DNA of 32,000 nt from Mycobacterium leprae TN (GTDB lineage Bacteria; Actinomycetota; Actinomycetes; Mycobacteriales; Mycobacteriaceae), in assembly GCF_000195855.1 (NCBI RefSeq), contig NC_002677.1, positions 3,060,001 through 3,092,000 of the forward strand. Reading direction: 5' to 3'. The first letter of the stretch is position 1; every line of letters starts with the position of its first letter. The notes below the pieces were generated by a model that was given only the letters and a program-made list of their open reading frames with translations, had not been told where the DNA came from and ran no database searches. A program made the position numbers and the translations under genes. This document shows positions 9,800-28,695 of the stretch, in pieces.

Positions 9800-10530
9800 A
9801 GTATTTGCAAGTTTATTGACGAATTGCTTTGGTGCACAGGTAAAGTACTTCCTCTAAGTTGCCGACAAACAGGATGGAGCGTGCAACTAGGCAGCAAAGC
9901 GCAGATTTCGTTACACCGAAACAGATGTTCGCGCCGCACACGACACCGGAGCTGTGATCCTTCATGACCCGAGACTCGAGTCGGCTACGGGAGTGCCAGG
10001 CACGGTCTACCAGTTGTATTGGCGGGATTTCCACAAAACGGATTTAATTGCCGGGGAGACAATCCCAACCCTCGAAGAACTCCTAGTCACACTCCCAGAT
10101 ATGCGGGCCAACATCGATATCAAAGCTGCCTCGGCAATAAACCCGGCTGTCAACGTCATCGAGCTGATGTATGCGCGCTTTCGGTACTGATCGGTTCGTT
10201 CTCTGATCAGTACCGAAAGCGCGCAGTACGTCTGCTGTCTAATCGGATCCGCCAGCACGGCGGACACGGGTACGTTCCTAGCGTTCCTGGCGGCGCAAAC
10301 GGCCCGCAGCCAGGCAGCTGCTAGGCGGATGTTGCACGACAGTGACTGCTTCCAGTTGCTTGGCTTTGGGGTGTGGCTATAATTAGCCGGTAAGCATGCA
10401 GGCGGGGGACGCTTCAGCTTACCTGGTTCATGCCTGGACGGTTGATGAGCCGGTCACAATGCACCCACTTCTCGACATCAACGTGGCCGGCCGGCGGTTG
10501 CTTCCGCGACTATCACCGGTATTGGGGCCA
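9800..10530 (+). pseudogene. Glycerophosphodiester phosphodiesterase (GDPD/UgpQ-like) pseudogene
   Basis: GDPD motifs are split across frames and interrupted by stops: YTETDVRAAHDTGAVILHDPRLESATG...GETIPTLEELL...ANIDIKAAS (9912-10190, ending at an in-frame TGA) and LVHAWTVDEPVTMHPLLDINV (about 10415-10480). Confidence 0.6.
10172..10225. repeat. Perfect palindrome P1: 21-bp arms, 12-nt spacer
   Basis: 10172-10192 tgcgcgctttcggtactgatc is the exact reverse complement of 10205-10225 gatcagtaccgaaagcgcgca (checked base by base). It lies inside the GDPD pseudogene, and the first arm supplies the in-frame TGA. Confidence 0.95.
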
Positions 10531-11588
10531 TGGGATGGTTTACGGCACACGAATATTGGCTGGGCGCCACTTGGTGCTCGAGCATGGCGCGGCAGCCATC
10601 TACCGCATCGCGTTTATGGCAGCCGCTACGCAGTTTCAGGCACTCATCGGGGAGAACGGGATGCTGACGGTGCTGCGATTTCTGGCTAGGCGGTCCTTCT
10701 GGAGATCACTGAACGTCTTTCATACCCGCTACTACGATGGGTTGTTCACCATTGCCTTCCGGTTCGGCGCGGCAATTGCGGCAGCTATCGTGGTCGTGGC
10801 GGCAGACTTGGCACCGTTGTGAGCCACGATGCCGATGCTGCTGACGCGCTGGGACCTTTACCTTTCGATGTCGGCTGGGCGAGCTAGTTGCTGTACGGGC
10901 TGGCGAGCCTGCTAGTTCTACCACTATGAGACACAGGCGATGCCGGGGCCGATCAGTTGGTTTTCTACCATCTACCCAAGCCACTGCACCGAATCGAGGT
11001 GTCGGGTAACTATTTTTTCCCCAGATCATCGGCCTATTCTGGTTGTTCACTCCACAGCAGATTGGCCAGCCTAGCTAAGGCGCTTATCGGTCGTCACCAA
11101 GCTGTGGCTAGTGGCATCGGACAACTTCATCTGACTCGATTAGCTGACGGTAATACTGGCCCGCAGCATGATAGATCAGTCTTGGGTCCTTCAGTGGCCG
11201 GCAACACCCCTACCCACGCAGCCGTTACTGCTGGCGTCGCAGTCGTGGTTCACCGTCTTGGCGAACATGTTCACCACCGCAGTTCTGTTCTTAAACCACA
11301 CACCTGTACGCAGCAAACTATCGTTTCATCAAAAAATGAACATGTTGTTCAACCCATTTCACCTCGTGTCGTGAACACCTACGGAGCTTTCGGCAGCTTT
11401 GGCTGCATTCACCGGTAACTGGTGATCGAAGGCACCGAAGAGACGACCATCAACAAGACAGATCCATAAGGAATACGAGTTCAAAAGCAAGCCCGGCACT
11501 ATATGCCGGTTGCAGCATCAATAGGTGCTCTATTAACTACGACCGGATCGCGGTAGCGCTGGAGATTAGCGAACGGCACGTAGTGATT

Positions 11589-11626
11589 TTTGATCAAGTG
11601 CAAGATCTATCTTGCACTTGATCAAA
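11589..11626. repeat. Perfect palindrome P2: 18-bp arms, 2-nt spacer
   Basis: 11589-11606 tttgatcaagtgcaagat is the exact reverse complement of 11609-11626 atcttgcacttgatcaaa. It lies in the C-terminal remnant of the ThDP-enzyme pseudogene. Confidence 0.95.
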
Positions 11627-12317
11627 TCGTAACCACCGTCCTCCCATATAAACACCACAAAAAGTATATGTTCTCGAATGGCTATCTCGCTTGTCTACGA
11701 GTTCCTCATTAACTCACCCTCACCAACAAAAGCCAACACCTTCGAGTCCGGCTTGGCCCACACCTCCATACCGCCGAGCAAAGCCATCAATAAATAATAC
11801 ATTTGAGGCCAAAAGACCAAAAAATGTTGTGCTGATACGTCGGGTACAGCTGCGCCATTCCATATCTTGATGACACCGATGTCCACCAGTCTGACATCGC
11901 CGCTGTCCATTGCCGAGCTAGTATAGGCGACTCCCGCTGGGGAGCTAGTGGAAACCTCGAATCCTGTCTCCCCGAGCTAATTACTCAGCAGGCAGACCAG
12001 ATCCTGTCACTGCGACATAGCCGCCGAAGCAGTATCCGGCGATCTCTAATGTGAGCGTGTGGAGAAAAGAACTTTGGTGTAGCAGATTATCCCGACACTC
12101 ACTGAATAGCGCATGTCGAACTCGGTCAGTGTCGCCGCAGCGGATTAACCCAGACGGGATTAAATTCCGCAATCAAGTTCTGAAGCACCTCAGTTCCCCC
12201 ATGTAGGCTCGCCAGCGAGTGATCAAGGCAAACATCAAAACCCAGTCGACTTATTACTGGTGCGACTCCATTATAATTATATTGACGACCCTGGCCCAGC
12301 TGAACCGAGATCACTAC

Positions 12318-12368
12318 CAGCGGGATGCTGGTGGTGGTGTCAGTGACACCACCACCAGCATCCCGCTG
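12318..12368. repeat. Perfect palindrome P3: 25-bp arms around a single central base (51 bp)
   Basis: 12318-12342 cagcgggatgctggtggtggtgtca is the exact reverse complement of 12344-12368 tgacaccaccaccagcatcccgctg. Both strands therefore translate to ...RDAGGGV(T/S)DTTTSIPL..., as seen in ORFs 12126-12392(-) and 12219-12413(+). Confidence 0.95.
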
Positions 12369-12683
12369 CATGTTGATCACACCAGGGACCAAATTCCACC
12401 GTACGACAGGTAAGCTACCTAATACATCTACATCTTCGCCATGAACGCCGTCGCTCGTTCATCCCGGAGTAAGTACGTGCCTGATGTGTGACGCCGCCAA
12501 TGCCTGCACGAAACGGATGTTTCCCACACCGGGTATCCCGAAGTCGACCGAGACAACCTCGCTTTCCAGGCACTTGACCATCGGTTGAACGACTGTGCTC
12601 ATCCAACATCTCCCCGGGGACACGATACTGGCAGGCTATACCCAGATGTTTCACCAGCCAGCCCAAATGAAGGAGAGGTCAGC

Positions 12684-14057
12684 ATGTCGATCGCCACCAT
12701 CAACCCGGCCACCGGCGAGACGGTCAAGACCTTTACACCGACAACCCAGGATGAAGTCGAGGATGCGATTGCTCGCGCCTATGCGCGGTTTGACAACTAC
12801 CGTCACACTACCTTCACTCAACGGGCCAAGTGGGCTAACGCCACCGCCGACCTGCTCGAAGCTGAAGCCAACCAATCCGCCGCCCTGATGACCCTCGAAA
12901 TGGGTAAGACGCTGCAGTCAGCTAAGGATGAGGCAATGAAGTGCGCCAAGGGTTTTCGCTACTACGCTGAGAAAGCCGAAACGTTGCTCGCAGATGAGCC
13001 GGCCGAAGCCGCCGCCGTTGGTGCGTCGAAAGCATTAGCCCGTTACCAGCCGCTCGGTGTGGTACTGGCTGTTATGCCGTGGAACTTTCCGCTGTGGCAG
13101 ACTGTTCGGTTCGCTGCACCGGCGCTGATGGCAGGCAACGTCGGCCTCCTAAAGCACGCGTCAAACGTGCCGCAGTGCGCGTTGTACCTCGCCGACGTCA
13201 TTGCCCGTGGCGGCTTTCCGGAGGACTGTTTCCAAACGCTGCTCATCTCGGCCAATGGTGTCGAAGCCATTCTGCGTGATCCCCGGGTCGCGGCGGCCAC
13301 CCTCACCGGTAGCGAACCAGCCGGCCAGGCGGTCGGCGCCATTGCGGGCAACGAGATAAAGCCCACTGTGCTAGAGCTTGGCGGCAGCGACCCTTTCATC
13401 GTGATGCCCTCGGCGGATTTGGATGCGGCAGTTGCCACCGCGGTTACCGGACGGGTGCAGAACAACGGCCAATCCTGCATCGCCGCCAAGCGGTTTATCG
13501 CCCATGCCGACATTTACGATGAGTTCGTCGAAAAATTCGTCGCCAGGATGGAAACGCTGCGAGTGGGTGACCCTACCGACCCGGACACCGACGTCGGTCC
13601 GCTGGCCACTGAGTCGGGCCGCGCCCAAGTCGAACAACAAGTCGACGCCGCAGCAGCAGCAGGCGCAGTGATCCGTTGCGGCGGTAAACGTCCCGACCGG
13701 CCGGGGTGGTTCTACCCACCGACCGTGATTACCGACATCACCAAGGACATGGCACTCTACACCGACGAGGTCTTTGGTCCGGTCGCCTCAGTATACTGTG
13801 CCACAAACATCGACGACGCCATCGAAATCGCCAACGCTACCCCCTTTGGGTTGGGTTCCAACGCTTGGACGCAGAACGAGTCCGAGCAACGACACTTCAT
13901 CGACAACATCGTCGCCGGGCAGGTCTTCATCAACGGTATGACGGTATCCTATCCCGAATTGCCGTTCGGCGGTATCAAACGGTCAGGCTACGGCCGAGAG
14001 CTGTCGACCCATGGGATCCGTGAGTTCTGCAACATCAAGACAGTTTGGATCGCATAG
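12684..14057 (+). CDS. gabD1: Succinate-semialdehyde dehydrogenase GabD1 (NADP-dependent aldehyde dehydrogenase), 457 aa
   Basis: ATG at 12684 sits 5 nt after AAGGAGAGG (12670-12678), in frame with ORF 12585-14057. ALDH motifs: VLELGGSDPFIV, the catalytic Cys in NNGQSCIAAKR, and PFGGIKRSGYGRE. The length equals my recollection of Rv0234c (457 aa). Confidence 0.9.
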   Translation: MSIATINPATGETVKTFTPTTQDEVEDAIARAYARFDNYRHTTFTQRAKWANATADLLEAEANQSAALMTLEMGKTLQSAKDEAMKCAKGFRYYAEKAETLLADEPAEAAAVGASKALARYQPLGVVLAVMPWNFPLWQTVRFAAPALMAGNVGLLKHASNVPQCALYLADVIARGGFPEDCFQTLLISANGVEAILRDPRVAAATLTGSEPAGQAVGAIAGNEIKPTVLELGGSDPFIVMPSADLDAAVATAVTGRVQNNGQSCIAAKRFIAHADIYDEFVEKFVARMETLRVGDPTDPDTDVGPLATESGRAQVEQQVDAAAAAGAVIRCGGKRPDRPGWFYPPTVITDITKDMALYTDEVFGPVASVYCATNIDDAIEIANATPFGLGSNAWTQNESEQRHFIDNIVAGQVFINGMTVSYPELPFGGIKRSGYGRELSTHGIREFCNIKTVWIA

Positions 14058-14950
14058 AACAGCCTAACCTCACGCCTAATCTAGCCTCGGTCATAACATG
14101 ATTCGAGAAAAATTGGCAACTTCGAGGAAGTATTCCTCTTCCTGTAGATGAGTTGTGCAGCTGAAATGCTCTAATTTTGTGTACTGGACCCGTGGAATCC
14201 GCTGCACGAAAAGAAACGACGCATAGGTCGGGCGCTTCATCGTAGCGCACATCGATAACGAGAGTGGTCACGGTGATCCGATTAAGCTGATCTACAACGG
14301 ACCACTATTTCAAAGCGCCCGCGCATGTAACACTCATTGGACCCAGCCGTCGCGTGATAGAAGACAGTCTGATCTTCTTTCACTGCGTCAAAGCTAGCCA
14401 CCAAGTACGGCGGGTTGGGAACCGGCGGCACACATGGCGGTCGTAAAACACCTAGTTGGTTGCCAAGATACTCCGCGAAATCCGTTGGGGTAGTGCTGCA
14501 GGTATAAGTTCGGACCGCAACTGGTTGACCCCGCCCCACCATAACCGCATAAACTCAGGTGTTTTAGCGAGTATCATTCCCCGAAGACCCGGAGACTGAC
14601 ACGGCATTGCTTAGCGAGGAGCATTCGACCCAGGAGTTATCTAACAGATAGTAATTATCGGCTATCTCAAGATCTGTAAGTAAGCAAACCAACTCGTCAA
14701 AGAATCAGGTGGACCTTCCAAAATTCAGGATCGGTGTTAGGGGAACTGAATTGATCGCACCGACCTAAACTGGTCGTAGTGGATGACAGTGCTTAATTAG
14801 CCGGGAGATCCGCGGCAGATAGGCGGTGCACTACCATGGACAACGACCAAAAGCGCGCGTCCTAGAACAGCTTTTCTAGCCCGCCGATGATGTGCCGTCA
14901 AGTGCGTCTACGAAGAATTTCAGGGTTAAGCTTCCAACGTGCTAAGCGAG

Positions 14951-14994
14951 ATCGTCATCCCTCTCCAAGTAAATCGTCATCCCTCTCCAAGTAA
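14951..14994. repeat. Perfect 2 x 22-bp tandem duplication (atcgtcatccctctccaagtaa)
   Basis: 14951-14972 is identical to 14973-14994. It is flanked by an imperfect inverted pair, agcttccaac (14929-14938) and gttgggaagct (15001-15011). Confidence 0.9.
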
Positions 14995-15124
14995 ACTAGT
15001 GTTGGGAAGCTCAGTTTGACCCGTCGGGTTACAGCCGCACACGTTAGCCCGTCGCGAAACACGGCCTGCATTCGGTGTGCTAATCCATTCCGCGTGCAAA
15101 CTACCAGGGGTCTGGCGTTGTCGA

Positions 15125-16060
15125 TTAAAAGGCTGCCAGAGTCCGTTTGTCCTCAACGGCTAAGCTGTCCTCCAGTTGCAGCGGCGAATAGTCGACATCG
15201 ATCTACTCCAGCAGCCATCCGCGAGCACTGCTGATTGTCCCTTACCCGTCGCACCCCTTCGTCGCTGGAGTACTGCATGAACTCGTCAACCGACAAACCG
15301 AACGGGATGTCGGCGTCGTAGAGCGCAAAGCCTTCTTGGATGCGGCACAACACTAAATAAATGAACTGATTTATCCGCGTTTCAAACGCCGTCCAATTAG
15401 CGGCGACAGATGAAGGTGCCTCACGCCATATGGTGTCGCTTGTCATCGTCGATTCGGCAGACCAATTCCTGCACGCCGGGAATAACAGCGCCCTATGAAA
15501 ATCGTAAGCCAGGAGTAGCATATCACCAACGCCAGTACGCCTTCGACGACGTGGTTGCAGATGACTGATGCCCGAACCTGTACGGCCGATGAGTGATCCG
15601 TCAACAATACCTCGAGGAATTCCAGCAGCTCTGGATAGAAGAAGATCTTACGGGTAGGGCGGAATTCCATCGAGGTAACGATGCAGATCGTAGCTGATAC
15701 CTACGGCGTCTAGCCATAAGCGGAATACCTGCGTGCGTTTGGGTTGCTCGATCGCGACCTCCGGATACATCTCTTCTCCCAGCCACCCTTCGGCGCGCAT
15801 CGCGCTCATGAACAGCTGGCTGTCCTTGGTGACTGCTTTTTCGCCGGTGGCGAACTCGTCGCACAGCCGGGTAGTAGCATCGCCCTCATGGTCCGACAGG
15901 GACTATGGTAGTCCTCACTGCCGCGAGAGAAGTCGTATCGGCTGGATTACAAAACTTTGCGTTTCCGCAGGCACACAGCTTCAAAGGCAAGCTCTCCCTG
16001 TTGAATCAGCCCACAACGAGCTATCCTATGCATGTGTGTTCACGATATTGAACTCCACGG
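15125..16060 (-). pseudogene. R2-like ligand-binding oxidase / ribonucleotide reductase small-subunit-like (Rv0233 nrdB-like) pseudogene
   Basis: Minus-strand fragments in several frames match the R2lox order as I recall it: [142 protein letters not shown]. Confidence 0.7.
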
Positions 16061-16529
16061 ATCATATCGAGACCGATTGTGTAGAAGCAGGTTTCGATGA
16101 CACAGTGAAGGCCGCCGCCAACACTACGATAATCCGGAGCACGGCCAACACTGGATTGTCGGGAGTTAGCGTGTCCCGTCCCAGGACCGCATCCATACCG
16201 CGCAGGCATAGATCCCCATATGCAGAAAAATCATCATCAGCACCAATAACAGCGCGGCTGTATCACAGTCCGCATGCAGCTCACCTGCGCGCACCACCGG
16301 CCGCAGCAAGTCCAGGCAGTGGCAATGAACTACGGTCCCCACACTGACCCGGGCAACGGCGGCCAACGCCAAAGCCGCGACGGCATGGAGCCCCCTAACA
16401 TCGATGACCATGTAATCATTCTGGTGTAATCTAACATAATAGTAAAACGCGTTGTCGGCTGGCCGTCAGAAGAGCACGCCGACGAACGTTAAGTTGGCCG
16501 CACGCTGGATAACAACAGCGGAGAAGGAA

Positions 16530-16839
16530 TCAGTCAAGGTCTAGTTCGTCGATGCGGATTGCTTGCAAGAGAGCAGATTCCTGAGCGAGAAACACGGTAA
16601 CCGATGTGTTAACCCAAAGCGGGGGGCTAGTGGAGATGGACACGATGTTGTCGCAATTGACTACTGAGGCCTGTTGTAGGCCGCTCTCGTTACCGACAGG
16701 CACCTCAGTCGACAGGTACACGGACAATGCTGGGGACTGGCACGACGGTAACGCGAGACAGATGCGGCCGGAAGAGTTCCGGGATCAGCATCAAAACGGG
16801 GCGCGCCTTGTCCAGATGTGCGGCGTGAATCGGCCGCAT
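16530..16839 (-). pseudogene. MazF/PemK-type toxin remnant (one frameshift near 16705-16727)
   Basis: MRPIHAAHLDKARPVLMLIPELFRPHLSRVTVVPV... continues after a frameshift as ...EVPVGNESGLQQASVVNCDNIVSISTSP...LDLD*. The total of about 103 codons is typical of MazF. The start overlaps the end of the upstream antitoxin remnant. Confidence 0.55.
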
Positions 16840-17073
16840 AAGTTCAGGCCTGGCGGAAGTTTCACCACATACCCAACCAGGGCATCCAGATCCGGACCAG
16901 TTCCCATAGCGGTAAGTTTCTGGGCATCGCGGGCTGCGATCTGGATTCACCGTTCGCTTTCAAGTGCACGCAACACCACTGCAGCGCAGCTCGGTGCGTG
17001 CTGCTCACCGACTCCCTGATTCCAGGAAGACGACGATGTCATCGGGTAACCGCACAGCAATCTGAGTGCTCAT
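16840..17073 (-). pseudogene. Ribbon-helix-helix-type antitoxin remnant (premature stop plus frameshifts)
   Basis: Minus-strand ATG at 17073 gives MSTQIAVRLPDDIVVFLESGSR* (stop at 17005-17007). This is followed in shifted frames by GEQHAPSCAAVVLRALESER and IQIAARDAQKLTAMGTGPDLDALVGYV. The AVRLPD...SRAxVVxxAL...ARDA pattern is typical of antitoxins paired with MazF-like toxins. Confidence 0.45.
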
Positions 17074-17103
17074 ACCATTCCGGTATCGGAATGGTATGAG
17101 CAC
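17066..17103. repeat. Perfect palindrome P4: 17-bp arms, 4-nt spacer; covers the antitoxin start codon (candidate former operator)
   Basis: 17066-17082 gtgctcataccattccg is the exact reverse complement of 17087-17103 cggaatggtatgagcac. On the minus strand the downstream arm contains ATGAGCAC, the first codons of the antitoxin remnant. Confidence 0.9.
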
Positions 17104-17144
17104 CCTAAGGAAACCAATGTCAAGAGTTCATCTGATAGGCCACG

Positions 17145-18860
17145 TTAATCGGCAGGACGTGTTTCTTCCAAGACTTGGTCGTAACGAGCCGAGTCGTTGA
17201 CCGGACACGGATCATCCGCATTACGAAACGAGCCTGGTCGCCTGTGGTTCGAAAACTTGCTATTGAGCTCGACGGGATAGCGGTTGAAGTCATTGACGAG
17301 CAGCGCGAAGAGGTCGTCGAGCAGCAGCTCACTCATGCCAGACGATGCAGCATCCTCCAGGATCAACTGGGTATAGGGCACAGTCGCTAAAAGCTGGCCC
17401 ACGCCGAAGACGAAGCCGATGTCCTTTTGCTGCGCTGCATCGGGAGTCAAGCTGACTAGCAGCGCGGCGAGCACATTGATCTACTCACGCAACAACGCAA
17501 AGTTGAGCAGGTGAGCATAGCTGCCGAACGTCGACCGCTAATCGTAGAACGCACCTCACCTAGGCTGCCCGTGGGCCCTGGGCAAACAAGAACGCCTCGT
17601 TGGACGTACCGACGCGACAACCCCAATCGGGGGCAATTCGCTATTCGGGGCGAGCAGGTAATTGAGCATAAACTCACCGAGCAACCCGATGTTGATGTGA
17701 ACGGTACCTTCCAGCCGGGACAACTCTCCGATCTCACGGACCATCGTTTCGAAAAACATGTCCTGCTTCGCAGCCTAAGGCAACGATGAGATCAAAATAG
17801 GGCAGTGTGCCGGCGAGAGAACACCGAGAATAGCCGGTAGCGGTGCATGCAGCATCAGTGAACAGCCACCACACGTGAGTAAAGTCGGTGACGACAGTCC
17901 CATCCAGGCGGCGGTTGGACATGTGGGTGACGGCCTCGTAAACGGCGTGCGTACACATACCGACAGAACACCCACATCCCAAATCATACGTTGACGGCGT
18001 TGAAGGGGCAGTGTGGAAGGCCTTCGGGCCTTGGTAACCAGATAGTCGCGCAGCGCGTTAATTGGCAACGTAGTTTGCGCTTCATACCATATTCTTGATC
18101 AGATCATACCACTCATGTCTGGAAATCGGCAGCGAAAAATATATAATTTGCCAGGGACGGTCACTTCACCGAAGGTGAGGACCATCCGGGTGACTTTTAC
18201 GTTGCCTATGTAGTCCTTCTAATCCAGCCAGTCCGTCCACCTTGACTCGGCCGCAAGATCATGTCGGGCTGGTAGACGTCGGCGCCGTGGGTCTGCTCCG
18301 ACAGATCGAAGGCTAACACCTCACCGGCCTGCAGCTGGGCAGTGAACTTGCGCTTGGCGTCCTCGTTGACGCTCGATCCAGATCAGGACCAGACCGAAAG
18401 CAGTCACCTGGAAGGGGACCAGTAGCTGAGTCCGTAGAAGCCGATGAACTGGGCAAACTCGCTGATTCGGTAGGTGTCCCGACAGCAATCCAGGCCACCG
18501 TACTTGTCCGGCATAAGCAGAGAAGCAAAGACGTGCTCCCGCCCTACGAAATCGGATAAATCATCTAAGTATCACACACTCGCGGTCGTCGGACTTCAAC
18601 CAGCGACTTCCCCGGAACTCGAAAAGTGCACCATCGCGGTCATGATCTCCCCAAGCGACGGTCTGGGTATTGGCGCTCCAAGCGGTTGGGATTTAGCAAC
18701 ATGACAATGTCTCCCTGGTACTCTCGGCAAGTTCCCGGGAGGCCGGTTCGGACAAGAACTAAGGTAAATGGCACTGCAAAAACGCGGCCACCGCGTGTCA
18801 GGAGAAAAACCGGGCCAGCAAATTGGCCAGTAGCACAATCAACTAAACCCAAACACCACT
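17145..18860 (-). pseudogene. fadE4: Acyl-CoA dehydrogenase (FadE4-like) pseudogene
   Basis: Minus-strand fragments in multiple frames: RKFTAQLQAGEVLAFDLSEQTHGADV (N/middle domain), AVYEAVTHMSNRRLDGTVVTDFTHV (ACAD C-domain pattern A..A..ya..R..fG..i.df), MFFETMVREIGELSRLEGTVHINIGLLGEF, and the C-terminal ORF 17145-17474. Divergent from php, as Rv0231 is from Rv0230c. The 5' boundary is approximate. Confidence 0.65.
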
Positions 18861-18893
18861 GTTTTCCTACCGCCGGACCTAGCTACCGGTTAA

Positions 18894-19863
18894 GTGTCAG
18901 AACTAAATACGGCTAGGAGCCCATAAATGTCACTGACATGCGCGTAACGTTCACGCATTAGTCAAGTGTTCATCCTTACCCCTGAATCGCGCAGAACTAT
19001 CCGGAACCCTGGACTGATGAAGAGCAGCGAGTGGCTGACGCCATTACCTGGCTAGGCTAGCTCAAGGACAGCGGTGTAGAAACCATCGTCGACCTCACTG
19101 TGATCCTGCTAGGTCGTTACATCCCGCGCATCGCCCGTGGCGCAGCGTCCACTGAGTTCAACATTGTTGTGATGGCCGGCATGTACATCATAATAACGAC
19201 GTACCGTTCTATTTCCACTAGTTCGGTGCGGGATGCGCCGTTGGACGGTCCAGAAATTATGACCTCCATAGTTCGTTCCGTGACATCGAGCTAGAGCATC
19301 GCTGACACCAGCATCAAGGCTGCGATCCTCAAATGCACCACCAGGCTTGCCTGGTGGTGCGCACAGGAGCCTAGGCACACAAACGCACCGGAGTCGCCCG
19401 ACCTCCACCCACACCCATGCAGCGGCTAAAGCGCGGACTTCGATCAGCAGCGTCTTTTCACTGAAGAAGGCGCGTCAGGGCCACGTGATCATCGGCCATT
19501 CCGGCGACACCAACAACGTAGACTACCTCGAGGCACTCAATCAACAACGGCTCCTACCTGGGGATGGACCAGTTAGGCCTCGACGTAACCTCGCCGATCG
19601 AAGACCGAGTGAACAGTGTGACGCACATGTTCGGCCGCAGGCACGGCAGACAAGATGGTGTTGTCCCACGATGCCAACTGCTATATCCGACGCGCCGCCT
19701 GAGGCGCTGCATCTGGTGGACGCACCCAATTAGCATTTACCTGCGCACCCATAACGACGTGATCACCACACTGAAAAATTAACGTGGTATCAACGATGAA
19801 CAGCTACACACCAGGCTTGTTGACAATCCGCGCAGCGCCTCCGAACACCAGGAAACTTATTAA
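18894..19863 (+). pseudogene. php: Phosphotriesterase-homology protein (Php) pseudogene with in-frame stops and frameshifts
   Basis: VSELNTARSP*, RVTFTH*, IAQNYPEPWTDEEQRVADAITWLG*LKDSGVETIVDLTVILLGRYIPRIARGAASTEFNIVVMAG, LDGPEIMTSIV, IKAAILKC, HVIIGHSGDTNNVDYLEAL, MDQLGLDVTSPIEDRVNSV, NDVITTLKN*..NDEQLHTRLVDNPR. These run collinear with Php (Rv0230c) as I recall it. Confidence 0.8.
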
Positions 19864-20174
19864 TTGAGCCGGTCCCCCGATCAGTTCATGCTGACTGCGC
19901 TCGTTCCCGACAAGCCCGCGGTCACGTGCTACGGGGTGATCGTAACCCGCCGCCCACGACCGGTCGACGAACCGGTTGGCCCAAGCGCTTTGGTGCACCC
20001 GGCCGACGGATCCAGGCTAAAAGCAGACGGCGTGAAAGAGTTGGCGCACAAACGTATTTTGTTATACACGGGAACACAAATCATCTAATTCGTCAGGACT
20101 CCGCTAAGGGACGACGGCGGAAAGGTGCGGCGATGGGCGGTGCGCACAAAAATCATGGCGCGATAGCATTCGCC

Positions 20175-21329: not shown

Positions 21330-21537
21330 GATTTTCCAGTCTGCCTAAGGCGCGTTGCTCTACGAATCAGGTGCATCCCGATGTCCCCAAAAATTACCCG
21401 GATAACCGCCGATAGGTTCGTAAGTAAAAGCCTTACATTCTGCTGTTAAGGTCAAACGGGTTTTACCTCGCTGCTTGGCCAGGTCGGAGCGGGTCGCGAC
21501 CAACGAGTCCAGGGACCAGAAGGAGGATCACATCAAC

Positions 21538-22821
21538 GTGAACCGAGCAGTCATTTTGCGGTTCACCGCATGCGGGATCATCGGGCTCGGCGCCGCCTTT
21601 TTGATCGCCGCATTGCTGCTGGCAACATATACTAGCAGCAGAATCACCAAAATCCCGCTTGATATCGACGCAACATTGGTTAGCGAAGGAAACGGAACCG
21701 CGCTCGATTCAAGCTCTTTGTCCAGTGAGCACATCATCGTCAACCAGAATGTGCCGCTAGTGTCCCAACAGCAGATCACTGTTGAGTCGCCGGCCAACGT
21801 TGACGTGGTCACGTTTCAGGTCGGTGTCTCGATTCGGCGCACCGATAAGCAAAAGGACACCGGACTACTGCTGGCCGTCGTCGACACCGTCACACTCAAT
21901 CGTAAAACAGCGATGGCTGTTTCGGACGACACACACACCGGCGGCTCCATCCAGAAGCCGCGCGGATTCACTGACGAGAACCCGCCTACCGCCATCCCGT
22001 TGCGGCACGACGGATTGTCCTACCGGTTCCCCTTCCACACCGAGAAAAAGACGTATCCGTACTTCGACCCGGTAGCACAGAAGACGTTTGACGTTAATTA
22101 CCAAAACCAAGAAGACATCAACGGTTTAACTACTTATCGCTTCACACAGAACGTCGGCTATGATGCCGACGGCAAGCTGGTGGCCCCAATAACCTACCCG
22201 TCGCTGTACGCCAGCGATGAGGACGGCAAAATCACCACCACCGCGGCGATATGGGGTTTGTCCGGGGATCCGTCGGAGCAGATCACCATGACCCGCTACT
22301 ACGCCGCGCAGCGTACGTTCTGGGTGGATCCGGTGTCAGGCACCATCGTCAAGGAAACCGAGCACGTCAACCACTACTTTGCCCGCGATACACTAAAGCC
22401 AGAGGTGACGCTGGCCGATTACAAGGTCACTTCCACCGAAGAGACCATCGAATCTCAGGTCAACTCGGCCCGTGACGAACGGGACCGACTGGCGCTATGG
22501 TCGCGAGTGTTGCCGATCACGTTCACCGCGGTCGGCTTGATCACACTGCTAAGTGGTGGATTCCTGGCTTCGTTCAGCCTGCGGACCGAGAGCGCGCTGA
22601 CCGAATCCGGTCTGGACCGGGCAAACCGCGACGCCTTCGGCCACTGCCGCACCGAGGAACCAGTTCCTGGCGCTGAAGCCGAGACCGAGAAACTGCCCAC
22701 CCAACGCCCTGAACTGCGTGATTCTAGTATACTCAGCGTCAGTGCGCACCGACGACGTTCAAGCGAGTCGTCACCACCCAATTCGGGGCCAGCCGACCCT
22801 GGCCACCCTGAACGGGGATAA
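21538..22821 (+). CDS. Conserved membrane protein, Rv0227c-like (N- and C-terminal TM helices flanking a large exported domain; DUF3068/PorA-like by recollection)
   Basis: GTG at 21538 sits 10 nt after AGGAGGA (21521-27), in frame with ORF 21475-22821. TM helix ILRFTACGIIGLGAAFLIAALLL, a soluble domain of about 300 aa, a second TM helix VLPITFTAVGLITLLSGGFLASF, then a Pro/Ser/Glu-rich tail. Confidence 0.85.
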   Translation: MNRAVILRFTACGIIGLGAAFLIAALLLATYTSSRITKIPLDIDATLVSEGNGTALDSSSLSSEHIIVNQNVPLVSQQQITVESPANVDVVTFQVGVSIRRTDKQKDTGLLLAVVDTVTLNRKTAMAVSDDTHTGGSIQKPRGFTDENPPTAIPLRHDGLSYRFPFHTEKKTYPYFDPVAQKTFDVNYQNQEDINGLTTYRFTQNVGYDADGKLVAPITYPSLYASDEDGKITTTAAIWGLSGDPSEQITMTRYYAAQRTFWVDPVSGTIVKETEHVNHYFARDTLKPEVTLADYKVTSTEETIESQVNSARDERDRLALWSRVLPITFTAVGLITLLSGGFLASFSLRTESALTESGLDRANRDAFGHCRTEEPVPGAEAETEKLPTQRPELRDSSILSVSAHRRRSSESSPPNSGPADPGHPERG

Positions 22822-22949
22822 CTCGGCAACGATGCGGGACAAAATGACCGATGGTATAAAGTACCTCCCGCGTGCGGGGAAACCGGGCAATCAGCACATC
22901 GCTCGGCGGCTGGGTCGTAGGGGTGAGTAGAGAGTTATACCACCGGTCC

Positions 22950-24725
22950 ATGAGCTGGTCTCGACCCAGCTACGCGTTGGGGATGGCGCTACTAGTGGTT
23001 GGCCCGCTAATGCGGCCCGGCTACCTGCTGCTGCGCGACGCGGTGTCCACACCCCGGTCATATCTGTCCGATGCCGCCCTGGGATTGACGTCTGCACCGC
23101 GGTCGACGCCGCAAGATTTCGCGGTGGCGATGGCCTCGCATCTTGTCGACGGCGGTATCGTGGTGAAGTCAGCACTCGTCTTGGGGTTATGGCTGGCTGG
23201 ATGGGGTGCGGCTCGACTGGTAGTGACGGCGCTGCCTTCGGCGGGTGTGGCTGGCCAGTTCGTCGCTAGCACACTGGCGGTCTGGAATCCCTATGTAGCC
23301 GAACGGCTGCTACAAGGCCATTGGAGCCTGCTGGTCGGCTACGGGTGCCTGCCCTGGGTTGCTGAGGCAATGCTAATGCTGCGATCATCCGACAATGCAA
23401 GCCGGCCGGGATTACTGGGGTTTTTCGCACTGGCTTGCTGGATCGCGCTGGCCGGGCTGACTCCAACCGGATTGATGCTCGCCGCGACAGTGGCGCTGAT
23501 CTGCGTGGCTGTCCCAGTTGAGGGCCCTGGCGAGCCCAGGCCACGTTGGCTGTGCGCCGCAGCGACATTGGGCAGTGCGCTAGGAGCAGCGCTGCCCTGG
23601 CTAACAGCTTCGGCAGTGGGCACGTCATTGACCGCCCATACGGTGGCGAACACGCTCGGAGTCACGGTCTTTGCGCCTCGTGCCGAGCCTGGTCTAGGCA
23701 CACTTGCCAGCCTGGCCAGCCTCGGCGGTATCTGGAATGGCGAGGCTGTACCCACTTCGCGGACAACACTTTTCGCGGTGCTATCGGCCACGGTACTGCT
23801 TGGGGTGGTGGTTGCGGGACTACCGGTAGCGGTGCGACGTCCAGCAGTAGTTCCGCTGCTGGTGCTGGCAGCGGTGGCGGTAGCGACACCTGCCGCTTTG
23901 GCAACAGGCCCGGGAATAGACATGCTAAAAGCAGTAGTCAATGCCGTGCCCGGCCTCGGAGTACTGCGCGACGGGCAGAAGTGGGTGGCGTTAGCGGTTC
24001 CGGGATACTCACTTGCGGGGGCCGGCGCAGTGGTGACGCTGGGACGCTGGCTAAGACCTTCAAGGCCCCTAAGTCCCGTAGTAACGGCGTTGGCGTGCTG
24101 TCTCGCGCTGATTCTGGCGCTGCCAGACCTAGCCTGGGGTGTGTGGGGCAAGGTTCAGCCAGTGCATTACCCGTCCGGATGGGCGGCCGTGGCGGCGACA
24201 ATCAACGACCGAGGCGAAGGCCCAGGGTGGGTAGCGGTACTGCCCGCCGGAACCATGCGACGCTTCTCGTGGTCCGGGACCGCACCAGTGCTGGATCCGC
24301 TGCCCCGCTGGGTCCGCGACGACGTACTGACCACCGGTGATCTGATCATTTCCGGAGTGATGGTTGCTGGCGAAGGTAATCATGCCCGGGCGGCACAAGA
24401 CTTGCTTCTGTCCGGGCCGAATCCTTCCGCCTTAACTGCGGCAGGAGTGGCCTGGCTTGTGGTTGAATCGGACACCGCCGGTGACATGGGTGCGTCTGCA
24501 CGGACCCTCGCAGCGCTGCAGCCAACCTACCGTGACGATGCGATCGGACTTTATCGGATCGGCGGTAGCAACGCAAAGACAGCGCCTTCCCCCTACCGAG
24601 GGTTACTGATTGCCGCGCATCTGACTTGGCTGGTAATACTGGTCATGGCCGTGGTCGGCATGCAGATTACCCGGCACACTCACTTCCGCGACGTATCAAG
24701 TGTAGCCTTACTATCACGACGATAG
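22950..24725 (+). CDS. Large polytopic membrane protein, Rv0226c-like (orthologue family of corynebacterial MmpA, from memory)
   Basis: ORF 22872-24725. The likely start is ATG 22950 (MSWSRPSYALGMALLVVGPL...). It has more than 10 hydrophobic helices plus a C-terminal soluble segment and a final TM helix. The overlapping long ORFs on other frames are low-complexity GC artefacts. Confidence 0.85.
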   Translation: MSWSRPSYALGMALLVVGPLMRPGYLLLRDAVSTPRSYLSDAALGLTSAPRSTPQDFAVAMASHLVDGGIVVKSALVLGLWLAGWGAARLVVTALPSAGVAGQFVASTLAVWNPYVAERLLQGHWSLLVGYGCLPWVAEAMLMLRSSDNASRPGLLGFFALACWIALAGLTPTGLMLAATVALICVAVPVEGPGEPRPRWLCAAATLGSALGAALPWLTASAVGTSLTAHTVANTLGVTVFAPRAEPGLGTLASLASLGGIWNGEAVPTSRTTLFAVLSATVLLGVVVAGLPVAVRRPAVVPLLVLAAVAVATPAALATGPGIDMLKAVVNAVPGLGVLRDGQKWVALAVPGYSLAGAGAVVTLGRWLRPSRPLSPVVTALACCLALILALPDLAWGVWGKVQPVHYPSGWAAVAATINDRGEGPGWVAVLPAGTMRRFSWSGTAPVLDPLPRWVRDDVLTTGDLIISGVMVAGEGNHARAAQDLLLSGPNPSALTAAGVAWLVVESDTAGDMGASARTLAALQPTYRDDAIGLYRIGGSNAKTAPSPYRGLLIAAHLTWLVILVMAVVGMQITRHTHFRDVSSVALLSRR

Positions 24726-24970
24726 CAACGGTTAAACTTCAGTGCTGGTTTTTACGGCCACTCTACTGAATAAAGTGGCTAAACTCTCGTTGTAGAGCCG
24801 GGGGGTTAAATTTGTGATAGCTGCGTCAGGCTGTATATCGACGTGGGCTCGATGCCAAGCTCACCATCAAGACGCCAAAGATCCCATAAGTGGGCAACAC
24901 TAACTGACGAAGCGCCTTCGGCTCCTTGTCGCTAATCACAGCGACCACTGTCAACCTGGAAGTAGGACTT

Positions 24971-25006
24971 CGGGATTGGGAGTTCGAACGGGATTGGGAG
25001 TTCGAG
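24971..25006. repeat. 2 x 18-bp tandem duplication (cgggattgggagttcgaa / cgggattgggagttcgag; one mismatch)
   Basis: 24971-24988 against 24989-25006 gives 17/18 identical. It sits in the 362-bp convergent intergenic region between the Rv0226c-like and Rv0225-like genes. Confidence 0.9.
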
Positions 25007-25087
25007 CTGCGGCACCAAAGTACCTCATGGGTACGCATAGGCTCCGGATTAAGTACAAAGCATCAGTTGGTACGGGAAAGCTTCGCC

Positions 25088-26272
25088 TCACACACCGCCT
25101 GAGACCACGCCAGTTATGTAGTCGCCGGCCTGCACCGCTTCCAACACCGTACGCATTGCGCCAGCGCTTTGCCGCCAGGAAAACTCGAGGCTGCGGGCCT
25201 GCGCCTTAGCACCAAGTTGATCACGCAACACCGGATCAGTTAATAGTTCCTCGAGCCTATCCACCAGATCAGCGCGGTTATCCACCAATATCCCAGTCAC
25301 CCCGTCGATGATCGAATCGGTTAGCCCCCCGGAGGACCGATAGCCAATAGTGGGCACGTTGTGCTGGGCCGCTTCCACCACCGCCAAACCCCATCCCTCC
25401 TTCCGCGAAGGCAAGAGATGCAGCCAAGAGCTTTGCAACACATGGTGCTTGGTCACGTCATCGACATGGCCATGGAAGGTCACCGCATCGGAAATCCCAA
25501 GTCGGTGCGCATGATCGACGAGACGTTGACGCCACCACCCACCGCCAACGATGTCAAGATGCAAACCCGGTATCCTCAAGCGTTGCCGCAGATCCGCGAC
25601 GGCCTCCAGCGCATCTTCAACCTGCTTGTGCGGCACCAGCCGCGACAACACAACCACTCGCGGCGCAGCCCCGCGTGTGCCAGACAACGATTGCGCCGGC
25701 GCCTCGTCTAGACCGTTGCGCACCACAGCGATCCGCTCGTGATCCACGCCAAGAGCAACCAGATCGCGAGCCGACGGCAACGACACCGTCAAATATTGAT
25801 TGCGGCGGTGCAACCGCGGGGACAACGTTGACTCGACATACCAGCCGAGCCGGCCGATCACCGGGCCGGCCACCGGCCACTGCTCACGATGACAATGGTG
25901 CACCAACACCACCACCCGGCTGCCATACAACAGTCGGGCCAGGAATGGCCAACCATTTTGGGTATCGACCACCACATCTGGACGCACCCGCCGCAGTGGT
26001 CCAAGCCCGAAGCGGGCCGCAGCCATCGCCAGCAATGCCCACAGGTACACCGAGTAGCGCCCGCCGGCGCGGCTAATCAGCACACCGTCAACCACTTCAC
26101 GCCGTGACGCACCTGGATAACGTGCGGTGCGTAGCGTTACGGAGATACCTGATGCGGCCAGCTGTACACCGATGCGCTGCAAATAAGTTTCGCTACCGCC
26201 CCCCTGTGGGTGACCAATGTCACGCCAGCATAGTAACAATACCGAACCCAGATCACGTCGCGCTGCAAACAT
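25088..26272 (-). CDS. GT4-family (GT-B fold) glycosyltransferase, Rv0225-like, 394 aa
   Basis: Clean ORF starting at ATG 26272. N-terminal GGSETY motif and a C-terminal GT4 nucleotide-sugar binding region LLPSRKEGWGLAVVEAAQHNVPTIGYRSSGGLTDSI. Confidence 0.9.
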   Translation of the reverse strand: MFAARRDLGSVLLLCWRDIGHPQGGGSETYLQRIGVQLAASGISVTLRTARYPGASRREVVDGVLISRAGGRYSVYLWALLAMAAARFGLGPLRRVRPDVVVDTQNGWPFLARLLYGSRVVVLVHHCHREQWPVAGPVIGRLGWYVESTLSPRLHRRNQYLTVSLPSARDLVALGVDHERIAVVRNGLDEAPAQSLSGTRGAAPRVVVLSRLVPHKQVEDALEAVADLRQRLRIPGLHLDIVGGGWWRQRLVDHAHRLGISDAVTFHGHVDDVTKHHVLQSSWLHLLPSRKEGWGLAVVEAAQHNVPTIGYRSSGGLTDSIIDGVTGILVDNRADLVDRLEELLTDPVLRDQLGAKAQARSLEFSWRQSAGAMRTVLEAVQAGDYITGVVSGGV

Positions 26273-26324
26273 CGACCGCTAGCCTAGCGAGAAAGCGGCC
26301 TAGCGTAACGCTCACGTTGGACAG

Positions 26325-27134
26325 GTGGACACCAGACGTAGGGTGTGGCCGGTGGCCATCATCACCCCTCATGTAACTGACGTGTTCGCGCAGCGAGCGA
26401 CATTGACCCGCTCGCTGCAGCTGCTGTCAGAATTTCGCTACGAGCAGCCGTATCCAGCCCGCTTCTACCGAGCATTGGCAGCCGATACCGTGGCTATGGT
26501 CGGTGATCTTTGGCTGTCGACACACGGTGCACCCCCGGTTGGCCGCATACTGCTCGACGTCGGTAGTGGGTCCGGATATTTCGCAGCAGCGTTTGCCGAC
26601 GCCGGCGTCCGATACATCGGTGTCGAACCGGACCCAAGGGAGATGCACGCGGCGGGACCGGCTTTGGTACCGAAAGCAGGCGCGTTTGTCCGAGCTTCGG
26701 GCATGGCGTTACCCTTCGCCGATGACGCTGTAGACATCTGCTTGTCGTCTAATGTCGCCGAACACGTACCGCAGCCCTGGCAATTGGGCAACGAAATGCT
26801 GCGGGTGACCAAACCTGGCGGCCTAGTCGTGTTATCCTACACTATTTGGCTGGGCCCGTTCGGCGGGCACGAGATGGGCCTGACGCATTACCTAGGCGGT
26901 GCCCGTGCCGCCACCCGGTATGTTCGCAAACACGGTCATCGGGCAAAGAACGACTACGGGTCTTCGTTGTTTCCTGTGTCGGCGGCCGATGGCCTGAATT
27001 GGGCGGCCAGTACCGGGGTCGCGGTTGCCGCATTTCCTCGCTACCACCCGCGATGGGCCTGGTGGCTGACATCGGTGCCGGTACTACGGGAGTTCGTGGT
27101 GAGCAATCTGGTGCTAGTTCTGCGGCCACGATAG
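26325..27134 (+). CDS. SAM-dependent methyltransferase, Rv0224c-like (orthologue family of corynebacterial MtrP, from memory)
   Basis: Clean ORF with SAM motif I ILLDVGSGSGYFAAAF, post-I YIGVEPD and motif II-like VDICLSSNVAEHV. The start is uncertain (in-frame GTG at 26325, 26343, 26352 or 26382). It is divergent from the GT4 gene with a gap of only 52 bp. Confidence 0.85.
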   Translation: MDTRRRVWPVAIITPHVTDVFAQRATLTRSLQLLSEFRYEQPYPARFYRALAADTVAMVGDLWLSTHGAPPVGRILLDVGSGSGYFAAAFADAGVRYIGVEPDPREMHAAGPALVPKAGAFVRASGMALPFADDAVDICLSSNVAEHVPQPWQLGNEMLRVTKPGGLVVLSYTIWLGPFGGHEMGLTHYLGGARAATRYVRKHGHRAKNDYGSSLFPVSAADGLNWAASTGVAVAAFPRYHPRWAWWLTSVPVLREFVVSNLVLVLRPR

Positions 27135-28302
27135 GCCAATGACAGTAGTTTACTGAACTATATTCTCGAGGCACTGCGGTTTGGGTAGGGGTGGCGCCAT
27201 GGTCGCCATACGCAAAACAGAGTACGACAAACTCTTCACCGACTGAATCTGGACGCAACCATCGACCTCCAGCATCATCCAGGTGTACTGCCCGGACACC
27301 GGTGAGTATGTGTGCGAAGTACCGATGGCAGCGCCCGGCCGACATTGACGACGCAGTCGCCGCGGCGACTTCGGGATTCCACCGCAGTCCCTGGCCCTCG
27401 ACGCCACCGACACTGGACACAGCCGTTAATCACTGCAGCGGTCTTAGGCAATGAAGGCCTGGTCAACACGCTGCTGACAGCTGAAACCAGTCAGACGCAC
27501 ACCATCACCGAGACGATGCATTGGATGAGTTCGAATGAAGCGAGGAACTTCTTTGCCGGCGCTGCGGACAAGAATCAAGTGTACCGAGATCCACAACGGC
27601 TCGTACGAGCAAACCATCGTCAGCCGGCGAACCGATTGTGCTGGTAAGCGCGATCGTCGCATGGAACGCGCCGCTGTTCCTGACGGTCAACAACCTGGGT
27701 CCGACGCTGCTAACCGGCTGCACAAGGGTACTAAAGCCGGCCACCGAAACCCCGTTGACCGCAAACGCTCTAGCCGAAGTTCTCGCTCCGGCGGACCTAT
27801 CTGAGGGTATGCTCTCAGTAGTGTCGGGCGGCGTCCCAACCGGATAGGCCCTGACGTCGAACCCGGAAATCGACATAATTTACCTTCACCAACCGATTCG
27901 GCCGGCGGTAAGGAGGTCGGGCTGACCTGCTCAAGCCGTGCACCGTGGAGCTCGGCGGAAAGTCGTTGGCCATCCTCCTCGAGGAAGTTTACCTGTCCAC
28001 CGCTATTCCGATGTTGGTGTTCTCTGGGGTGATGAACGCCGGGCAAGGCTTTGTGAATCAGGCCCGCATCCTGGCCCCACGTTCCGGGTACGACGAAATC
28101 GTGTCCGCGATCGAGGAGCACAGCACAAACATCGACAGACAAAAGCATCGGGAAGGTGAGTTCGGCTGGTGTGCAGCAATGGAAGCTGCGGTGCCGGCAA
28201 CGGGTTTTTCGTGTAGCCCAAGGCATTCAAAGATATCGACAACAAGATAACGATCGACCAGGAGGAAATCTTTGGGTAGGTGCTAAGCATCATTGGTTAT
28301 GC

Positions 28303-28342
28303 CACCGAGTCGTTGGCGATCACGATCGCCAACGACTCGGTG
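28303..28342. repeat. Perfect palindrome P5: 19-bp arms, 2-nt spacer
   Basis: 28303-28321 caccgagtcgttggcgatc is the exact reverse complement of 28324-28342 gatcgccaacgactcggtg. It encodes TESLAI-T-IANDSV within the ALDH pseudogene. Confidence 0.95.
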
Positions 28343-28368
28343 TATGAGCTAATCCGCAATATATAGAC

Positions 28369-28429
28369 TATCCCCCTCGAAGGGCATTAAGATCTGTTTC
28401 GCAGATCTTAATGCCCTTCGAGGGGGATA
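28369..28429. repeat. Perfect palindrome P6: 28-bp arms, 5-nt spacer (61 bp)
   Basis: 28369-28396 tatccccctcgaagggcattaagatctg is the exact reverse complement of 28402-28429 cagatcttaatgcccttcgagggggata. It lies 26 bp downstream of P5 in the same pseudogene. Confidence 0.95.
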
Positions 28430-28695
28430 CGAAATCAATTGGTACACTTTCAATCCCAGCTTCCCCTTATATCCACTACAAAAACTCCGGAATCGGACGT
28501 GAAAACGAGCCCGAATAAGTCAAGCACATCACTCAACAAAAGAACGTGCTAACGACGATAGGCTACACAACCAGCTATAGAGCCGTGGCAGACCATAAGA
28601 GAAGAGCCAAGGTGCTTTGTGAGGCACACTGGCTTTTAGTTGAAGTCCAAGGCATAGATGTTAGCATCGGCCCTTCATGCGTCGGGCGGTGGGAG

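Follow-up and report, generated by a model that had tools for sequence, protein, structure and literature searches.

The window analysed here is a stretch of 32,000 nucleotides (nt) from Mycobacterium leprae TN (positions 3,060,001 to 3,092,000 of contig NC_002677.1), in which six long perfect palindromes (P1 to P6) have been identified in or beside the remains of dead genes. The genes of this locus are arranged in the order htdX, TetR, lpqI, aftD, gabD1-like, Rv0228-Rv0224c-like and yrbE1A. The palindromes, the pseudogenes that surround them and a smaller seventh repeat are listed in Table 1. Five of the palindromes (P1, P2, P3, P5 and P6) probably arose when weak inverted repeats in former coding sequence were made perfect by template switching, and P4 appears to belong to a separate class.

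Table 1. Palindromes, related repeats and pseudogenes in the window (arm and spacer lengths in nt; strand is that of the gene)
Feature	Position	Strand	Arms	Spacer	Setting and evidence
P1	10172..10225	+	21	12	In glpQ2-like (GDPD) pseudogene
P2	11589..11626	-	18	2	C-terminal thiamine pyrophosphate (TPP) domain of acetolactate-synthase-like pseudogene
TPP-dependent (acetolactate-synthase-like) pseudogene	11656..12635	-			Hosts P3; protein-level matches
P3	12318..12368		25	1	N-terminal TPP domain, same pseudogene as P2; M. leprae-specific
P4	17066..17103		17	4	Intergenic, ~16 nt past the aligned stop (17120-17122, - strand) of the fadE4-like pseudogene
fadE4-like acyl-CoA dehydrogenase pseudogene	17123..18793	-			P4 lies just after its 3' end
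Small seventh case	19335..19360		12	TT	Perfect inverted repeat GCACCACCAGGC TT GCCTGGTGGTGC in decayed DNA
Aldehyde-dehydrogenase (Rv0223c-like) pseudogene	27214..28700	+			Fragmented tblastn hits, Aldedh fragments, Pfam Aldedh; hosts P5 and P6
P5	28303..28342	+	19	2	EEDAIKIANDSVYG motif of the aldehyde-dehydrogenase pseudogene
P6	28369..28429		28	5	Same aldehyde-dehydrogenase pseudogene, downstream of P5

All six palindromes were recovered by a repeat finder with exactly the coordinates, arm lengths and spacers that had been given in an earlier reading of the same DNA made without database searches (the sequence-only reading), and their arms are 100% complementary. A separate census of the window, in which mismatches were allowed (spacer of at most 15 nt, +1/-1 scoring), gave scores of 17 to 28 for P1 to P6 and no more than 12 for every other repeat. 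The top score in 30 Markov-1 shuffles was never above 14, and the real background at scores of 10 to 12 was at the level of the shuffles; the earlier rejection of a chance origin is thus borne out. All 128 arm pairs are Watson-Crick pairs with no G-T pair among them, and complementarity in P2, P3 and P5 reaches to 1-2 nt from the dyad axis. No inverted repeat scoring above 12 was detected by the census inside the ~16.0 kb of intact coding sequence of the window, in agreement with what had been seen there by eye. The palindromes P1, P2, P3, P5 and P6 occupy internal positions in dead reading frames, where the nearest intact gene is as much as 1.2 kb away, and P5 and P6 are separated by just 27 nt. 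The statement that all six are in pseudogenes is therefore correct for these five but not for P4, which is intergenic between the fadE4-like pseudogene and TetR-like remnants.

Syntenic loci for comparison were obtained from a genome scan with the Rv0228-like protein and comprise those of M. lepromatosis, M. uberis and 78 functional mycobacteria (M. haemophilum was not among them). The glpQ2 gene of the Mycobacterium tuberculosis complex (MTBC), which served as the closest functional outgroup for P1, was fetched separately via protein search. The M. leprae sequence covered in the analysis amounts to ~46 kb. Polarity rests on the asymmetry of arm identity and on the alignments, since the automated per-arm parsimony count was blurred by indel alignment, above all at the M. 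lepromatosis deletions. Alignment to relatives, the check proposed in the sequence-only reading for finding the ancestral arm, allowed P1, P2, P3, P5 and P6 to be polarised. P1, P3, P5 and P6 are perfect in M. leprae only. They are absent or uncorrected in M. lepromatosis, and M. lepromatosis, M. uberis, the MTBC and the functional orthologs retain unconverted sequence at these sites.

The clearest conversion is that of P5. The functional orthologs contain a quasi-palindrome at this site, CACCGAG-GAGGAC-GCGATC AA GATCGC-CAACGA-CTCGGTG, in which 11-15 of 19 positions are paired. The right arm of P5 is identical to the orthologs at 17-19 of 19 positions and the left arm, which has been rewritten, at 13-14 of 19. 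In place of the left-arm bubble GAGGAC, M. leprae has TCGTTG, which reads as the reverse complement of the right arm; five of the six bases differ and the length is the same. The site is uncorrected in M. lepromatosis. The ancestral arm of P6 is the left one (20/28 positions as in M. uberis, 15-18/28 as in functional orthologs) and the right arm is rewritten (8-12/28 identical to the outgroups), with a net gain of 9 nt. The ancestral pairing at P6 is 4-10/28, and M. lepromatosis has a deletion of ~44 nt at this site.

The pseudogene that hosts P1 shows the Pfam domain GDPD (E=1.8e-7) in a frame-stitched translation; Pfam searches with the raw open reading frames around P1 gave no match, the domain being visible only after frame stitching. 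The conserved motif VLIGSFSD is encoded by the left inner arm of P1 together with the spacer. When P1 is aligned to MTBC glpQ2 and to the M. lepromatosis and M. uberis loci, an ancestor is indicated that had the inner stem CTGATC/GATCAG and the outer stem TGCGC/GCGCA. The left outer 7-nt tract ACAACCG was changed to GCTTTC, which is the reverse complement of GAAAGC in the right arm, with a net loss of 1 nt, and two bases of the right inner arm were altered to fit the left arm.

Two further palindromes are associated with the acetolactate-synthase-like pseudogene. The left arm of P3 is identical to the outgroups at 17-19 of 25 positions, which corresponds to ancestral sequence at background divergence; the right arm has been rewritten, agrees with them at 8-11 of 25 and has become 9 nt longer. 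The ancestral seeds are CAGCG/CGCTG and GCTGTTG/CAACAGC, and the pairing was weaker here (8-11/25). P2 lies just past the last detectable protein match of its pseudogene, where the DNA alignment to the orthologous genes still holds. A quasi-palindrome with 7-10 of 18 positions paired is already present in the functional orthologs, and the outer TTTGATC/GATCAAA is common to M. leprae and M. lepromatosis. Since the split of the two species, a G>A change in one arm of the M. leprae copy has been matched by a compensatory C>T change in the other. The alignments indicate that the formation of P2 began before this split and that P2 is partly older than the other four.

The changes at the converted sites are clustered and all go toward complementarity, and the flanks are collinear and align normally. 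The rewritten arm is the left one in P1 and P5 and the right one in P3 and P6. The sequence-only reading had proposed that one arm of P2, P3, P5 and P6 keeps the ancestral protein motif, and this arm was found to be the right one in P5, the left one in P3 and P6, and mostly the right one in P2. It had also proposed replacement in situ, which is exact for P5 (0 nt) and nearly so for P1 (-1 nt), whereas P3 and P6 each gained 9 nt.

The density of perfect inverted repeats (arms of at least 17 nt, spacer of at most 12 nt) differs strongly among the genomes compared. The window of M. leprae contains six per 32 kb, whereas the 78 functional loci contain 7 per 1.5 Mb, equal to 0.15 per 32 kb. The cases in the functional loci come nearly all from two intergenic hairpin-repeat families (GCGAGCAGACGCAAAAGCCCCC...GGGGGCTTTTGCGTCTGCTCGC and CGAGCGTGAAGC...GCTTCACGCTCG), where they occur amid a continuous spectrum of imperfect copies. 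M. lepromatosis has two in 21 kb, the ortholog of P4 and one of its own, and no long perfect inverted repeat was found in 18.7 kb of M. uberis. In the same aligned span, five cases are specific to M. leprae and one to M. lepromatosis. The latter indicates that the process acts in the sister lineage too. The suggestion that such palindromes are a feature of decaying mycobacterial genomes nevertheless does not hold in general, given the counts in M. uberis and M. lepromatosis.

The perfection of all copies is a second property of the M. leprae palindromes. In these pseudogenes, the M. leprae branch has diverged neutrally by ~8% per site, and ~9 mismatches would be expected in the 222 arm positions of P1, P2, P3, P5 and P6 if the events were evenly spread since the split. 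No mismatch is present in those 222 positions, and no long repeat with 1-3 mismatches was found by the census of the window. This suggests that the events are recent or that the arms are held identical by recurrent switching. The second possibility corresponds to the model put forward by Lavi et al. (PMC5941160) and agrees with the paired change in P2.

A third property is the sequence at the apex. GATC is located at most 2 nt from the arm/spacer junction in P1, P2, P5 and P6, and CCGG straddles the junction in P4, as had been noted from the sequence; AGATCT occurs in both P2 and P6. An apical GATC is thus found in 4/6 palindromes compared with 2-3% of the short inverted-repeat seeds in 1.5 Mb of related functional loci (uncorrected binomial P ~6e-6, in a post hoc test with n=6). 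The GATC pair belongs to the ancestral inner stem in P1 and P5, whereas the second copy in P6 was made by the event.

The palindromes P1, P2, P3, P5 and P6 are best interpreted as cases of quasipalindrome correction by short-range template switching in dead genes, and this is considered likely. The interpretation is based on the clustered change of each tract to the reverse complement of its ancestral neighbour, on the seed of partial symmetry, on the restriction to a single lineage and on the collinear flanks. The proposed course of events would start from ordinary coding sequence that contains a weak inverted repeat by chance. A polymerase copying one arm would leave its template, copy the other arm, most likely on the opposite strand, and then go back to the original template. 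A tract of 5-25 nt would thereby be overwritten by the exact reverse complement of its ancestral neighbour, with a length change between 0 and +9 nt. In an intact gene, such a rewrite of several codons would be purged by selection, whereas in an M. leprae pseudogene it would be neutral and stay. Repeated switching between arms that are already similar would keep them identical, which might account for the perfect state of all copies. The 12-nt repeat at 19335, which arose via a 22-nt deletion and clustered substitutions relative to the functional orthologs, is probably also a product of template switching. The earlier proposal that quasi-palindromes were made perfect by template switching and kept where selection was lost is accordingly supported by outgroup polarisation for five palindromes, but not for P4.

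The particular form of switching put forward in the sequence-only reading, intrastrand snap-back or fold-back priming, is doubtful. Pairing in P2, P3 and P5 extends so close to the axis that a hairpin cannot close, and a switch to the opposite strand is therefore more likely. Fold-back priming at a break would also fail to return to the original template, which argues against snap-back. The negative GC skew of the + strand and the chromosomal position suggest a leftward-moving replication fork. With such a fork and with rewritten arms on either side, both leading-strand and lagging-strand events would be needed.

Several observations weigh against template switching as the explanation. A single switch with return is plausible for P5 and P3, whereas both arms of P1, P2 and P6 differ from the inferred ancestor, so that several rounds or another homogenising process would be needed for these. 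The seeds of P3 (8-11/25) and P6 (4-10/28) are weak and barely above chance pairing, and P4 cannot be polarised. M. lepromatosis and M. uberis carry the same pseudogenes yet show far fewer events. The lack of any decayed copy has a probability of P ~0.002 under steady neutral birth and decay (own estimate), and an extra assumption, either a recent burst or ongoing correction, is therefore required. The enrichment of GATC at the apices is not predicted by the template-switch model. The sample of ~46 kb of M. leprae sequence is also small.

A more far-reaching possibility, put forward only tentatively and regarded as rather doubtful, is that long-tract template switching is raised, or arm homogenisation efficient, in the M. 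leprae lineage. If this were true, loss of a nuclease or helicase that aborts such switches would be a possible cause, and hundreds of long, still perfect palindromes would be expected across the M. leprae pseudogenes. The events would start preferentially beside GATC, pointing to a specific initiating lesion or nick, and they may have added to gene inactivation itself.

Homogenisation of the arms without replication is an improbable alternative that several features would nevertheless suit. It would proceed through repair of mismatches once a cruciform or hairpin has been extruded, or through gene conversion or intramolecular recombination from arm to arm. The changes in P1 and P2 go both ways between the arms, P2 shows paired compensatory substitutions, and any efficient homogenising process would account for the perfection of all copies despite the branch divergence of ~8%. 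Mismatch correction alone, however, can neither supply the 9 nt by which P3 and P6 have grown nor write an arm of 20-25 nt at sites with near-chance ancestral pairing. For homologous recombination, moreover, arms of 17-28 nt would be very short substrates. Mycobacteria are not known to possess MutS/MutL mismatch repair, which also counts against homogenisation. The end product of such a process is indistinguishable from that of a template switch on sequence alone.

P4 differs from the other palindromes in its age and position. It is identical in M. lepromatosis, where its arms measure 19 nt, together with 21 nt of flank. It lies within an identical run of 59 nt (17066-17125); no longer run occurs outside intact genes, and the rest of the region has 73-85% identity between the two species. 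Rather than a recent template switch, P4 is probably a hairpin of long standing at a 3' end, already present in the ancestor that M. leprae shares with M. lepromatosis. A comparable hairpin, AAGGTCCCCCGCTTCAAC followed directly by GTTGAAGCGGGGGACCTT (18-nt arms, zero spacer), was found ~2.9 kb upstream of window position 1 (fetched M. leprae locus L098, 5660-5695, equal to L004, 16766-16801). This fadE5 hairpin is flanked by convergent intact genes and lies ~23 nt past the stop codon of fadE5, which is itself intact; 35/36 positions of the hairpin are kept in M. lepromatosis, and a G>C single-nucleotide polymorphism in one arm is present in two M. leprae samples (LVXE01 and SRR6241800). Both P4 and the fadE5 hairpin resemble hairpins of old origin at the 3' ends of acyl-CoA dehydrogenase genes, which would form a separate class. 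The palindrome found only in M. lepromatosis (L007, 6302-6343; 18-nt arms, 6-nt spacer) is likewise located between convergent intact genes, one Rv0226c-like and the other encoding a glycosyltransferase, and the orthologous M. leprae site (25010-25046 of the window) is a quasi-palindrome only. Long perfect palindromes are therefore not limited to decayed DNA once sequence beyond the window is included, contrary to the sequence-only reading.

Additional features were observed near these hairpins. One contig of a Logan assembly (L005) terminates inside the fadE5 hairpin. The adjacent segment at ~5700-5900 of L098 is AT-rich, contains repeated TTAATATACGGT-like motifs and has no counterpart in M. 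lepromatosis.

Hairpins maintained by selection, such as terminators or insulators, RNA-stability elements or protein-binding sites that evolved to silence or fence off pseudogene transcription, are very unlikely to account for the palindromes as a set. The conservation of P4 with its flank ~16 nt after a stop codon and the retention of the hairpin after intact fadE5 are the observations that such selection would explain. M. leprae has also been described as having few intrinsic terminators and much read-through into pseudogenes (PMC2753549), which counts in its favour. By contrast, P1, P2, P3, P5 and P6 have no T-tract on either strand and no Rfam match, lie far inside dead frames and are absent from the orthologous M. 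lepromatosis pseudogenes. Their strict Watson-Crick pairing extends into positions that are unable to pair in a hairpin (spacers of 1-2 nt), and the close spacing of P5 and P6 is a further point against selection. No Rfam family was matched in a scan of the window. A terminator scan of both strands listed none of P1 to P6 among the terminator-like sites, and the counts of promoter and terminator sites were those expected from shuffles. The intrinsic (Rho-independent) terminator was considered as a candidate and rejected: P1 to P6 lack a T-tract, the spacers of P2, P3 and P5 are too short for a loop, and only P4 lies just past a stop codon, the other five being inside dead reading frames. Copying by template switching is favoured over selection for hairpins because all pairs are Watson-Crick, pairing continues near the axis, and T-tracts and Rfam matches are lacking.

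An origin of the palindromes in assembly, cloning or whole-genome amplification can hardly be credited. GATC is the Sau3AI/MboI site of many genomic libraries, and its enrichment at the apices would fit such an origin. The symmetry axes are not at the centre of GATC, however, as a ligation chimera would need, and a ligation artefact is therefore unsupported. The window is 99.99-100% identical across all six sites in the NCBI assemblies GCA_003253775.1, GCA_001648835.1 and GCA_001653495.1. De novo Logan assemblies from three separate sequencing runs agree with this, as SRR11049266 contains P1 to P4, SRR11049263 contains P5 and P6, and SRR6241800 contains P1 and P2; ~20 further similar contigs exist per look-up. 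In total, the palindromes occur in four other NCBI assemblies and in the three Logan assemblies; their absence from independent isolates or raw reads had been named as a sign of artefact. P4 and a precursor of P2 were also found in M. lepromatosis. An artefact is excluded as far as present data allow.

Membership in a dispersed palindromic or mobile-element family (repetitive extragenic palindromes, miniature inverted-repeat transposable elements or insertion-sequence ends) is equally hard to credit: functional mycobacterial loci do carry the two intergenic hairpin-repeat families named above, but the longest substring common to different arms is 5 nt, the 12-mer of each arm is unique to its own palindrome in the window, the arms match only their own orthologs in ~1.6 Mb of fetched loci, as expected from the earlier statement that no repeat family is shared, and five of the palindromes were derived in place from host coding sequence.

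Template switching of the kind proposed here has been demonstrated experimentally in E. coli and phage and inferred from the genomes of bacteria and primates (PMC7202029, PMC5941160, PMC5453318, PMC8794818). That such switching both creates and maintains perfect inverted repeats is an established model (PMC5941160, PMC5453318, PMC8794818, PMC7202029). A close parallel is provided by the quasipalindrome mutations of E. coli and phage T4 (Ripley 1982 model; thyA, rpsL and lacZ QP5/QP6 reporters; PMC7202029), in which an imperfect repeat is likewise converted to a perfect one via a clustered templated change, with one arm templating the other and a small change of length. The E. coli and T4 cases involve few bases, short stems and single events, whereas the M. 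leprae tracts measure 5-25 nt and the arms 17-28 nt. The M. leprae events were also fixed over evolutionary time in pseudogenes.

Perfect short repeats have been studied in Proteobacteria (Lavi et al. 2018, PMC5941160; van Noort et al. 2003 cited there). They resemble the M. leprae repeats in the excess of perfect over imperfect copies and in the concerted change of arms as in P2, and a balance of mutation and correction has been proposed for them. The proteobacterial repeats are mostly short and occur in functional genomes, whereas those of M. leprae are long and lie in decayed DNA of a reduced genome, at a density ~40x that of functional relatives. For each M. leprae repeat, the ancestral coding sequence can still be recovered, unlike in the proteobacterial study.

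In primates, clusters of changes have been explained by a four-point model as a single inverted copy of a nearby stretch (Loytynoja & Goldman 2017, PMC5453318; Monttinen & Loytynoja 2022, PMC8794818). Perfect stems and RNA hairpins that arise de novo and apparent compensatory substitutions are also among these events. The primate events concern other organisms, a single event appears insufficient for several of the M. leprae sites, and the likeness does not come from a four-point fit. The coding palindromes of Nematomorpha mitochondria (PMC6649704) are also long perfect inverted repeats within protein-coding sequence. Both of their arms lie in functional genes, whereas the host genes in M. leprae are dead and the rewritten arm destroys the motif. 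The intergenic and 3'-end hairpins of mycobacteria (GCGAGCAGACGCAAAAGCCCCC... and CGAGCGTGAAGC...GCTTCACGCTCG families) are similar to P4 and the fadE5 hairpin in their position just downstream of a stop codon. P4 differs from them in its unique sequence and lack of a T-tract, and the other five palindromes are intragenic, unique and lineage-specific.

No prior description was found in the searched literature on palindromes, inverted repeats, hairpins or template switching in M. leprae, and the comparative M. lepromatosis genome paper (PMC9248898) does not mention such palindromes. The sequence-only reading had likewise been aware of no such description. The same paper dates pseudogenisation to ~14 million years ago, shortly before the species split. 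The five converted M. leprae palindromes thus represent an already known mutational process in a new and remarkably clear example, in a setting that has apparently been unreported until now.

In its pseudogenes, M. leprae preserves mutations that escape removal by selection, and natural records of this kind are rare. Should the whole genome have the density of the window, these pseudogenes would provide a large catalogue of bacterial template-switch events that can be polarised. With such a catalogue, one could measure how often mutations of this class arise, how long their tracts are, how far they are biased to one strand and which sequences trigger them; it could also be used to study the active maintenance of perfect repeats and the question of which lost repair functions unleash the process. 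Template-switch clusters also inflate the apparent substitution counts that are used for dating pseudogenisation. Palindromes of this type can break short-read assemblies and could pass wrongly as terminators or regulatory sites.

Several other observations were made at this locus and its relatives. Two near-perfect inverted repeats with 15-nt arms and one mismatch were detected, one in decayed M. leprae DNA upstream of the window (L098, 3399-3435) and one inside intact htdX of M. lepromatosis (L096, 10379-10408). A tandem duplication of an 18-19-nt unit (CGGGATTGGGAGTTCGAA/G) is present at ~24971-25006 of the window in M. leprae, and M. lepromatosis has a single copy. The segment at ~17800-20166 has no counterpart in the M. 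lepromatosis locus (~2.3 kb versus ~170 nt) and represents a lineage-specific deletion or insertion that spans php/Rv0229c-like remnants. A 734-bp segment of the window (29669-30402) is missing from CP029543.1 and present in both draft assemblies; no microhomology was seen at its boundaries. Since the contigs of the draft assemblies end at ~30395-30457, a dispersed repeat or an assembly problem is suspected immediately beyond this segment. The gabD1-like open reading frame encodes 490 amino acids, and the called gene begins later and corresponds to a form of 457 amino acids.

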